Virus genome (UHGV): UHGV-0199485
Length of the DNA: 11,900 nt
Origin: a virus
Direction: 5' to 3' (one strand)
Shown here piece after piece: positions 6,011 to 9,214 of the stretch. The notes beneath the pieces were generated by a model that worked only from the letters and a program-made list of their open reading frames with translations, was not told the DNA's origin and did not search any database. The number at the start of each line of letters is the position of its first letter. Positions within the stretch are counted from its first letter, which is position 1. Both the position numbers and the translations under genes were made by a program.

Positions 6011-6039
6011 ATTATGTCATGCTCAAGGTTATTTGTCAA
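6011..6039 (-). promoter_or_regulatory. Candidate sigma70-type promoter reading leftward toward the 234-aa gene
   Basis: Minus strand TTGACA (6039-6034), 17-bp spacer, CATAAT (6016-6011). Confidence 0.35.
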
Positions 6040-6140
6040 CAGCTTTTTAACAGATTGGTAACATCAATTCTTATTTACTGTGTTACCTGCCAAGCAACCA
6101 ACAAATAAACCCAAAACTGTCCATAATACAATTAACGTCA

Positions 6141-6651: not shown

Positions 6652-7077
6652 TTATTTTGAATTGTCTTTATTAATCAATGATTTAACGTAGAAATACTGC
6701 CTCCGTGAAATACCATATTTTTCTGTGATGTATCGCTGAGATTGACCAGCATTTATGGCCTGAGTGATATCATCACGGTTATAGCGGTTACCACGGGATT
6801 TATATTTGTCACCATCCACATCTTCTGATGTATTGAAGTCTTCAATCAGCTTAATTGCATCGTGAAGGTCATCTTCTGAGGCATAATCGAAGGTATGGAT
6901 AATCTCAAAATCACCAGTATCTGCTGGTGCATTCTTCCATCTGGAGAAGCGGGATTTTAATTGCTGGTGTGTGAAAGGTTCAGCATTACGAGTTAAATCT
7001 TTCCATGTTCCGCTATTCTCACGGACAAGGTGGCCTCTATGGCGATAAAACGCATGATAATCAAATGTGCATAGCAT
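6652..7077 (-). CDS. Putative transcriptional regulator with C-terminal helix-turn-helix (Mor/C-like or resolvase-HTH-like)
   Basis: C-terminal segment RDDITQAINAGQSQRYITEKYGISRRQYFYV fits a DNA-binding HTH. The start codon overlaps the stop of the upstream gene (TAATG, 7075-7079), implying translational coupling. Confidence 0.55.
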   Translation of the reverse strand: MLCTFDYHAFYRHRGHLVRENSGTWKDLTRNAEPFTHQQLKSRFSRWKNAPADTGDFEIIHTFDYASEDDLHDAIKLIEDFNTSEDVDGDKYKSRGNRYNRDDITQAINAGQSQRYITEKYGISRRQYFYVKSLINKDNSK

Positions 7078-7367
7078 TAAACCCCCAGCCTATCCGCTAA
7101 TTGATGGACCTTTGCGCTTAACACCTGAATCATTGAGCAACCTGCTACTGCGGACTGTGCTTTGAGTAGTTCCAGTTGGTCCGTTGTGATTCTGATGGCC
7201 TTAGAACCCTCTGCAACACCCTTAACATTATCAAAAGGGGTAAGGGTTACCGGCTCTTTTAGAAGCTCTCCAACAAGCGCCGTATGCTTCATATCAGGGT
7301 ATTTGGCTTTGATTGCTGCCAGTCGTTCAAATGCCTCTGGCAAAAGGCGCGTAACTGTGTGAGTCAT
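7077..7367 (-). CDS. Ribbon-helix-helix-type DNA-binding protein (96 aa)
   Basis: AAGGAG lies 8 nt upstream of the ATG. C-terminal half KAIRITTDQLELLKAQSAVAGCSMIQVLSAKVHQLAD fits the beta-strand / helix / G-x-S turn / helix pattern of RHH repressors; the N-terminal half is RHH-like but less canonical. First gene downstream of the leftward promoter. Confidence 0.5.
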   Translation of the reverse strand: MTHTVTRLLPEAFERLAAIKAKYPDMKHTALVGELLKEPVTLTPFDNVKGVAEGSKAIRITTDQLELLKAQSAVAGCSMIQVLSAKVHQLADRLGV

Positions 7368-7402
7368 TGTAAAATCTCCTTAAATCTCTTACTCATACTA
7401 CA

Positions 7403-7453
7403 ATCTTAACATTTATTTAACATGTTGTCAACATCTCATTTACATGATATTAT
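7403..7453. promoter_or_regulatory. Divergent back-to-back promoters sharing a 13-bp palindromic operator
   Basis: Leftward: TTGACA (7431-7426), 17 bp, TAAGAT (7408-7403). Rightward: TTGTCA (7425-7430), 17 bp, TATTAT (7448-7453). The two -35 hexamers overlap inside the palindrome ATGTTG-t-CAACAT (7422-7434). Confidence 0.5.
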
Positions 7454-7503
7454 GGTTATAGGGGCTGATACAGGTGCTGTTTCCTTTCACAAAAGGAAAA
7501 TTA

Positions 7504-7680
7504 ATGCATGATTTTTTCACAGCAATTATTGAATCTCATCGTTTTAGCTCGTTGGGCTTTGCGGTATTTATTGTGCTATTGGTGTTTTGCGTTATGAATC
7601 GAGTCATTACAAAAAAGACAAAGCTTACAATTCGACTTAAACTTCTTCGTGTTGAGATAGAGATTTCAGTAAATAAATAG
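7504..7680 (+). CDS. Small predicted membrane protein (58 aa)
   Basis: ATG at 7504 is preceded by AAGGA at 6-nt spacing; the ORF track starts at an in-frame GTG at 7474. One hydrophobic segment (LGFAVFIVLLVFCVM) is followed by a basic tail. It is the only gene downstream of the rightward promoter. Confidence 0.4.
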   Translation: MHDFFTAIIESHRFSSLGFAVFIVLLVFCVMNRVITKKTKLTIRLKLLRVEIEISVNK

Positions 7681-7689
7681 CTGGTGGCC

Positions 7690-7986
7690 TTACCGGCACT
7701 TTCCCTTGATAATATTGGTGGCCCTCAGATTACCGGGGTCACCGTCTTTTAATCGTAGCTGGTGGACTGAATCCCAGATATCATAATGATACAGCACTGC
7801 AAACCTCAAAGCGTCAATCTTTAAATCTGTCACACCATCAAAAAAGAAATAATTCTTTCCTTCCTTCTTCGGTCGAATCCGGTAAACCTCCCCATGAGTA
7901 TCTTTCAGAAGATGACCTTCACGAGAAATGCTGTAGCGCCTTAATAGATAATCTTTGTATCGTTTTTCACCGTTATATTCTCTCAT
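7690..7986 (-). CDS. Hypothetical 98-aa protein translationally coupled to the replication initiator (weak HNH-like motif)
   Basis: Its ATG overlaps the rep stop (ATGA, 7983-7986) and GGAGGT lies 5 nt upstream. C-terminal VHQLRLKDGDPGNLRATN loosely resembles an HNH-type motif but lacks the canonical residue pair, so a nuclease assignment is tentative. Confidence 0.5.
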   Translation of the reverse strand: MREYNGEKRYKDYLLRRYSISREGHLLKDTHGEVYRIRPKKEGKNYFFFDGVTDLKIDALRFAVLYHYDIWDSVHQLRLKDGDPGNLRATNIIKGKCR

Positions 7987-8897: not shown

Positions 8898-9159
8898 TAT
8901 ATTTTCCTTTTTAAAAATAAAACAAAGAAAGGGCTGACCACGTATAGTGACCAACCCCAGAGGGAGTGAATTAATTAGAAGATGGACTGATAAAGGAACT
9001 CAGAAGCCTGAGCGATTACGCGAGTATTAACAGCAAAAGGAAAAGCCTTGATTGAATAAGAGGCCGTGAAAATCTGTCAATACCCTGACGCCTCCCAACG
9101 TTGTAACCTCTTAATGTTCTGAGTTCTTTTATCAGCCCATATAGAAACTATAACAGATG

Positions 9160-9214
9160 TGATTATAAATTGCAACAATTATTTCACAGAATAATTACTG
9201 TTTGATTATAAATT
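9160..9214. repeat. Two exact 12-bp direct repeats TGATTATAAATT in the non-coding control region
   Basis: Copies at 9160-9171 and 9203-9214; on the minus strand each contains TATAAT. Function unknown (operator or -10-like boxes facing the rep gene). Confidence 0.4.

Follow-up and report, generated by a model that had tools for sequence, protein, structure and literature searches.

In the window, the whole 11,900-nucleotide stretch of UHGV-0199485 that was analysed, the region described here appears from its sequence to be the central regulatory hub of a ~12-kb integrative E. coli island, a putative phage satellite. The island lies within yecE and encodes a 507-aa serine recombinase; its Rep protein matches replication-initiator PHROGs, and there are four 22-bp iterons. 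It has the large serine recombinase, the initiator and origin of its own and the integrative form of satellite-type elements. There are no capsid or terminase genes, and the structural genes are limited to a tape-measure gene and its neighbour. Related islands occur in about 10% of complete E. coli genomes (569/5426); the tail genes that they contain are nearly identical to those of Felix O1-like phages of the therapeutic type. In the window, positions 1740-2283 share 95% nucleotide identity with Felixounavirus, which is the only indication of helper dependence. The proteins of the regulatory module have relatives only in islands of Escherichia, Shigella and Citrobacter, searches of phage and plasmid collections with the module DNA or proteins gave no match, and our literature search found no paper on the island family or its proteins. 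The module is organised as follows.

7403..7431, minus strand: P_L, leftward sigma70-like promoter; -35 TTGACA (7431..7426), 17-bp spacer, TG-extended -10 TAAGAT (7408..7403)
7425..7453, plus strand: P_R, rightward sigma70-like promoter; -35 TTGTCA (7425-7430), 17-bp spacer, TG-extended -10 TATTAT (7448-7453)
7406..7445, plus strand: operator O1, four direct T(T/C)(A/T)ACAT boxes with exact 11-bp spacing: R1 TTAACAT (7406-7412), R2 TTAACAT (7417-7423), R3 TCAACAT (7428-7434), R4 TTTACAT (7439-7445)
7422-7434, no strand: 13-bp palindrome ATGTTGtCAACAT, formed where the end of R2 meets the overlapping -35 hexamers and R3
7077..7367, minus strand: 96-aa gene, first of the P_L operon; tandem single-chain ribbon-helix-helix (RHH) protein by model, the proposed box binder
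6652..7077, minus strand: 141-aa gene; N-terminal alpha/beta domain of unassigned function, C-terminal three-helix helix-turn-helix (HTH) at residues 101-138
7480..7499, plus strand: 5'UTR hairpin TTTCCTTT/AAAGGAAA, with the ribosome-binding site of the 58-aa ORF as its 3' arm
7504..7680, plus strand: 58-aa gene, single-pass membrane peptide MHDFFTAIIESHRFSSLGFAVFIVLLVFCVMNRVITKKTKLTIRLKLLRVEIEISVNK
7680..7697, no strand: candidate bidirectional terminator hairpin between the convergent 58-aa ORF and 98-aa gene

The initial annotation described two outward-facing sigma70-like promoters with overlapping -35 hexamers, and these are indeed present at 7403-7453 and conserved in related islands. 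Each scores 10/12 in a promoter scan, the two -35 hexamers have 7426-7430 in common, and the pair makes up two of the three best promoter matches in the window. TG-extended matches of at least 10/12 number three in the window against 0.30 expected, a count reached in 0.4% of 1000 shuffles. P_L is predicted to start at ~7396, so that 29 nt of leader, including an AAGGAG ribosome-binding site, precede the ATG at 7367; the predicted P_R start lies near 7460, about 64 bp from that of P_L. By itself the position of the pair is only marginally significant, since opposed matches of at least 10/12 no more than 40 bp apart arise in 48 of 1000 shuffles. It is conservation, not position, that makes the promoter pair convincing. 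The -35 and -10 elements of P_L are kept in 11 relatives, with TAAAGT as a -10 variant, and the P_R -10 variants TACTAT and TAATAT all retain TAnnAT and the TG. Across 12 islands, the 79-bp core at 7398-7476 has a mean pairwise identity of 0.905, versus 0.69 and 0.79 in the adjoining UTRs. The E. albertii relatives have lost P_L and boxes R1-R3, leaving one box of the four, and of P_R only the extended -10 can be read by eye (TGTTAAAAT), yet the genes are retained; the paired arrangement is therefore dispensable.

The four boxes of O1, set one helical turn apart, lie across both promoter cores, from the P_L -10 over the common -35 region to the spacer of P_R. R1 runs into the P_L -10 with its TG, R3 lies partly on each of the two -35 hexamers, and R4 abuts the extended -10 of P_R. 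None of 2000 dinucleotide shuffles reproduced four ACAT motifs at 11-bp spacing. For three WACA motifs at this spacing there are 3 matches in the window against 0.01 expected, and the background frequency of such arrays is 9 in 2.1 Mb. Triple WACA arrays in the window are confined to 7408-7444, within O1, and to a second site, 6038-6063, at the promoter of the late genes:

6011..6039, minus strand: P_late, TTGACA-17-CATAAT with TG, 11/12, the strongest promoter match in the window and conserved in relatives
6036..6064, plus strand: operator O2, three boxes at 11-bp spacing, TCAACAG, TTAACAG and GTAACAT

P_late heads an operon of a 234-aa gene, a 71-aa gene, the tape-measure gene and a baseplate-like gene. 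The first O2 box is placed on the P_late -35 in just the way that R3 is placed on the -35 of P_L; both sites read TTGTCAACA. The promoters, the boxes with their conservation and the second array are features that sequence and statistics establish, and we count the predicted protein folds and the coding status of the peptide with them. All 11 E. coli relatives have kept the O1 boxes, and so has Citrobacter, whose islands retain both arrays; O2 is also kept in GmM077 and in the SCU-387 variant, with one or two boxes left in E. albertii. Among relatives the box cores (AACAT/TACAT) are held exactly and the intervening 4-nt spacers vary. No box array was found near the island ends, the iterons or the leader of the rep gene. 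When genome contigs were scanned with a 14-base operator pattern, one further Escherichia island was recovered; the same scan of viral contigs gave random matches only and was uninformative. We also considered mimicry of helper-phage promoters and rejected it, as the boxes, the 79-bp core, O2, a 70-nt repeat and the start-site motif described below (box 2) are all absent from Felixounavirus VpaE1.

The geometry common to P_L and P_late might have been inherited by duplication rather than kept up by a common regulator, and consensus-like promoters beneath AT-rich phased repeats could partly reflect selection for UP elements or curvature. An explanation built wholly on these two processes, in which the phased repeats are not protein sites at all, strikes us as very improbable. 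It draws on the AT-richness and helical phasing of the repeats, on the fact that the upstream region of each divergent promoter is the core of the other, on the -10-like character of TAACAT itself, and on TTGTCAACA and the similar start regions of P_L and P_late. It sits poorly with box cores that stay exact while their spacers vary, and with the return of the heptamer beside promoters in an otherwise unalignable module; moreover, curvature needs no identical pentamer. The module in question is that of the SCU-387 variant island, which has a tandem RHH protein 30% identical to the 96-aa protein, back-to-back promoters and two TTAACAT boxes 11 bp apart.

The initial annotation had placed a shared operator elsewhere, in the 13-bp palindrome. 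We reject this, since the window holds eight perfect 6-1-6 palindromes and the left arm reads ATATTG in 11/11 E. coli relatives, so that the palindrome is perfect only in this window. Its centre, TTGTCAA, follows automatically from the overlap of the two -35 hexamers. The palindrome is a by-product, neither above chance nor conserved; the conserved elements are instead the head-to-tail direct repeats.

What reads these repeats is suggested by the first gene of the P_L operon. The earlier assignment of this gene to the RHH proteins is borne out by the model, in the form of a tandem single chain: the predicted fold contains the beta-alpha-alpha unit twice. The AF2 model has moderate confidence (pLDDT 62) and was built on a shallow alignment, whose homologs all share no less than 73% identity. 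Membership in the RHH class rests on this predicted fold, because the 96-aa protein matched no Pfam, NCBIfam or PHROG family at E <= 0.1 and no PDB sequence below E = 0.3. The best fold matches are two solved single-chain tandem RHH structures, F TraY and single-chain Arc (73-75 residues aligned). The strand residues HTVTR and AIRIT are invariant across the family. The SCU-387 protein has HTLTR and HIRIK at these places, so that HTxTR and IRI are kept, and the E. albertii protein (82% identical) differs by one L-to-I change in strand 1. E. albertii keeps this protein without P_L and R1-R3, which would mean that the arrays can be spared or that the protein acts on some other target. The second leftward gene was expected to encode an HTH regulator, and an HTH is indeed found at the C terminus of the 141-aa protein. 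Stop and start codons of the two genes overlap in TAATG (7075-7079), an arrangement set up for the translational coupling that had been proposed. The RHH gene is the only one always adjoining the cassette; the second gene is swapped, and the 141-aa gene is missing from Citrobacter and E423 islands that have both arrays.

Such an operon invites comparison with a type II toxin-antitoxin module, in which an RHH antitoxin would be followed by a coupled toxin and autoregulated through the repeats. Gene order and the TAATG overlap fit this, and many RHH antitoxins are among the fold matches of the 96-aa protein. However, the two RHH units occupy the whole 96 aa and leave no toxin-binding tail, the 141-aa protein carries its HTH at the C terminus and gave no match to toxin or defence families, and the second gene is freely exchanged for unrelated small genes. 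We give this interpretation almost no credence.

Our preferred reading, to which we assign a probability of about one half, is that the boxes are probably bound by the island's own tandem RHH protein, and that the locus is a self-limiting hub reaching the phage-tail genes rather than a two-state switch. From sequence we infer the identity of the binder, the sign of regulation and the inducing signal. P_L would express the 96-aa RHH protein with the coupled 141-aa HTH protein, and P_R the small membrane peptide. The two unlike RHH halves would form an asymmetric pseudo-dimer, and we propose that for this reason the protein can read asymmetric sites. One molecule would occupy each box, with cooperative assembly along one face of the DNA. 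Filling of the array would shut both promoters, so that the regulator operon is autorepressed and the peptide co-repressed; translation of the peptide may be damped further by the hairpin that hides its ribosome-binding site. The same protein on the three boxes of O2, at the P_late -35, would keep the tail-gene operon silent. All three promoters would then be released together once the repressor was lost or titrated, and possible triggers are entry into a new cell, replication of the island or a helper-phage anti-repressor.

The nearest natural counterpart in layout is the immI region of phage P22, where the RHH repressors Arc and Mnt act on the divergent, overlapping promoters Pant and Pmnt. 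Like the island, immI has back-to-back overlapping promoters in a mobile element, with an RHH protein as the first gene of one; it also has operators inside promoter cores, and autorepression with repression of the opposite promoter, as we propose here. In contrast to the island, Arc and Mnt are separate homodimeric/tetrameric proteins on dyad-symmetric operators, with a regulator on each side. The island has one predicted single-chain tandem RHH protein, head-to-tail repeats, only a membrane peptide on the opposite side and a second array on a distant late promoter, and there is no sequence similarity. Structurally, the best matches (71-75 residues) are F-plasmid TraY (9f0x_E), engineered single-chain Arc (1u9p_A) and AvtR of an archaeal virus (4hv0_A). 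These share with the 96-aa model two RHH units in a chain of ~95-130 aa that form a pseudo-dimer, an asymmetric protein suited to asymmetric repeated sites; sequence identity to the 96-aa protein is only 12-17%, with no profile match. TraY is a relaxosome accessory factor acting at oriT, whereas the island has neither relaxase nor oriT and its sites lie on promoters.

RHH units are known to bind repeats about one helical turn apart, and repeated heptamers can control several promoters (PMC6294495). CopG, omega, AmrZ and Reg576 of plasmid p576 bind short repeats roughly a turn apart cooperatively, one small repressor serving several promoters with the same heptamer, as proposed for the island; all of them act as homodimers, on repeats that are set 7 or 9 bp apart or are otherwise oriented (PMC6294495). 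In the island the spacing is exactly 11 bp, the repeats all point the same way and we take each bound unit to be a monomer. Phage 186 Apl and P2 Cox, directionality factors that act as monomers and also regulate switches, offer the same arrangement, with multiple direct repeats one turn apart between two early promoters, and their cooperative spreading represses both, as we suggest here (10.1101/784983). Apl and Cox are HTH-type proteins and also bind att for excision by a tyrosine integrase. The island differs in having a large serine recombinase and no box array at its ends.

A rival reading keeps the boxes as a real operator and gives them to some other protein. That reader could be Rep, the replication initiator, or the 141-aa HTH protein, or it might be supplied by the host or, as a regulator, by a helper phage. 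In this case the tandem RHH protein would have another role, for example a TraY-like architectural or accessory one in excision, replication or packaging. E. albertii has the RHH protein without arrays, and the best structural match, TraY, is a DNA-bending accessory protein and no classic repressor. Moreover, direct repeats one turn apart are a signature of monomeric directionality factors such as 186 Apl between pR and pL (10.1101/784983). Nevertheless we consider another binder unlikely. Citrobacter and E423 islands with both arrays lack the 141-aa gene, and no array was found near the ends, the iterons or the rep leader; the boxes are missing from a Felixounavirus genome, and the RHH variant with 30% identity is again accompanied by TTAACAT boxes.

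To the right of the boxes, the unit was predicted to hold a small membrane peptide alone, and this is confirmed: the 58-aa ORF is followed by a hairpin. The ORF is open in four diverged alleles, the frame and an ESHRFxxLG motif being kept at 71-78% and at 42-44% identity; dN/dS is 0.24-0.39 and the other frames contain stops. By these measures it is a real membrane-peptide gene under purifying selection, and some relatives have it in their PGAP annotation. It belongs to an orphan family, with five matches among 1.8 billion representatives and no PADLOC, Pfam or PHROGs match. The SCU-387 variant has an unrelated 58-aa membrane peptide in the same rightward place. Four other alleles (five in all) have an equivalent of the 5'UTR hairpin with compensating changes (UA<->CG), and its single-sequence z-scores are weak (-0.6 to -1.5). 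At the downstream hairpin the T-rich tract is better on the minus strand, and E. albertii and Citrobacter have stronger GCTGGTG...CACCAGC hairpins at the equivalent place. We found no promoter of at least 10/12 antisense to the 58-aa unit and no Rfam family in it; only read-through from the rep operon could be antisense; no known RNA family was found in the whole window.

The rightward unit encodes a small hydrophobic membrane peptide whose translation is apparently restrained by mRNA structure, as in type I toxin modules. It might serve mainly as such a module, in maintenance or abortive infection, with antisense rep read-through as the check and the divergent layout incidental. In support are the small single-pass protein under purifying selection, the ribosome-binding-site hairpin kept with compensating changes in five alleles, and a minus-strand operon fully antisense to the 58-aa unit. 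However, there is no dedicated antisense promoter or small RNA among those sought, 58-62 aa exceeds most type I toxins, and the profile searches of PADLOC, Pfam and PHROGs gave nothing; indeed, defence-system and toxin profiles run over all small proteins had no match. We regard this as improbable as the main function, and it is compatible with repression by the RHH protein.

The initial annotation also tied the locus tentatively to the late and replication genes. For the late genes this stands through a feature that the annotation had not noted: the same boxes lie on the late-operon promoter. For replication the link takes another form, a 13-nt element at the start site of P_R, which we call box 2, that recurs in the replication region:

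7462..7474, plus strand: box 2 copy a, GGGCTGATACAGG, spanning roughly +2 to +14 from the P_R start, 8 nt beyond the -10 hexamer
9126..9138, minus strand: box 2 copy b, GGGCTGATAAAAG, spanning roughly +2 to +14 from the P_rep start, 8 nt beyond the -10, the geometry of P_R
8984-8996, plus strand: box 2 copy c, inside the 3' arm of the rep leader
9147..9175, minus strand: P_rep, TTGCAA-17-TATAGT with TG, the promoter of the rep leader; it hardly varies across all the islands compared
8982..9140, minus strand: structured rep leader with 38-nt inverted repeat arms at 9140-9103 and 9019-8982
8930..8958, minus strand: intrinsic terminator, a 12-pair stem and U-run directly upstream of the rep ribosome-binding site and its ATG at 8898

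P_R and the replication-gene promoter have in common the start-site box GGGCTGATA. The motif GGNCTGATAMAGG has three matches in the window against 0.09 expected, a number reached in 0/200 shuffles, and TATAGGGGCTGATA is 93% complementary to 9130-9143. The E. coli and Citrobacter islands retain copy a, as do E. albertii L015/L016; L013 has a degenerate version of it (GGGAACTGATAC). Control of replication by the divergent pair, as opposed to this common box, is not supported: rep has a conserved promoter, a structured leader and a terminator of its own (8925-9175). The leader is structured (RNA fold of 9141->8890, -80.7 kcal/mol, z = -6.35), and its arms co-vary between two alleles. Other roles for these repeats were tried and set aside. 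An invertible segment with box 2 or the 38-nt repeats as sites of the 188-aa invertase is doubtful, as no inverted orientation was seen at the loci examined and islands without that invertase still have the repeats; the 38-nt repeats are more likely an RNA stem. The 5' end of the P_R RNA could pair at 12/13 positions with the leader 3' arm, and action in trans is implausible because that arm is already closed by the 38-nt cis stem. Neither the 98-aa nor the 141-aa protein is a suitable binder of box 2, since neither gene is universal among islands that have it.

These features bear on the proposal that the locus is a bistable switch. In a true toggle, polymerase would occupy one -35 at a time, and P_R transcription, the peptide or its RNA would antagonise the leftward and replication programme, giving a quiescent P_R-on and an active P_L-on state. 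The overlap of the -35 hexamers makes occupancy mutually exclusive, P_R transcription converges on the operon of rep and the 98-aa gene, and P_R and P_rep share their start-site box. Indeed, the divergent overlapping promoters of P22 immI do work as a switch under their RHH proteins. A toggle, however, needs mutually antagonistic regulators on each side; we find divergent promoters with common operator sites and no DNA-binding protein on the P_R side. Bistability is unsupported because no repressor is encoded opposite P_L. In addition, the membrane peptide that stands there alone is replaced by an unrelated one in SCU-387, the array covers both promoters symmetrically, from which joint repression and not alternation would be expected, P_L is missing from the E. 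albertii islands, and a terminator-like hairpin separates the convergent units. We hold a toggle to be quite improbable, and return to joint repression through the boxes as the preferred account.

The wider setting of such a hub resembles that of the PLE of Vibrio cholerae, in outline a small island with a large serine recombinase at its end, an iteron-type initiator, mostly same-orientation orphan genes and a tie to a virulent myovirus. As far as this outline goes, the E. coli island shares the recombinase at one end, the iteron-type initiator, the orphan genes and the myovirus tie; it differs in carrying homologs of helper tail genes (the tape measure and a neighbouring gene), and its relation to a helper is putative. 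Extended to the whole element, the proposal would make the hub the master off-switch of an undescribed E. coli satellite family of virulent Felix O1-like phages. The RHH protein would polymerise head-to-tail on boxes phased at 11 bp at its own promoter and at those of the membrane effector and the hijacked tail operon, GGGCTGATA would tie in replication, and helper infection would inactivate the repressor and fire the whole programme at once. We offer this extended form as a speculation that is doubtful as it stands.

By itself, a divergent promoter pair that is autoregulated through an RHH repressor is a familiar design. A natural, predicted single-chain tandem RHH protein with strictly head-to-tail sites would be a clean model of how an asymmetric pseudo-dimer works on direct repeats. 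As the same boxes lie on the tail-operon promoter, the whole element would become accessible through one small protein and ~40 bp of DNA. Should the island prove to be a satellite or to serve in defence, phage sensing would best be sought at this hub.

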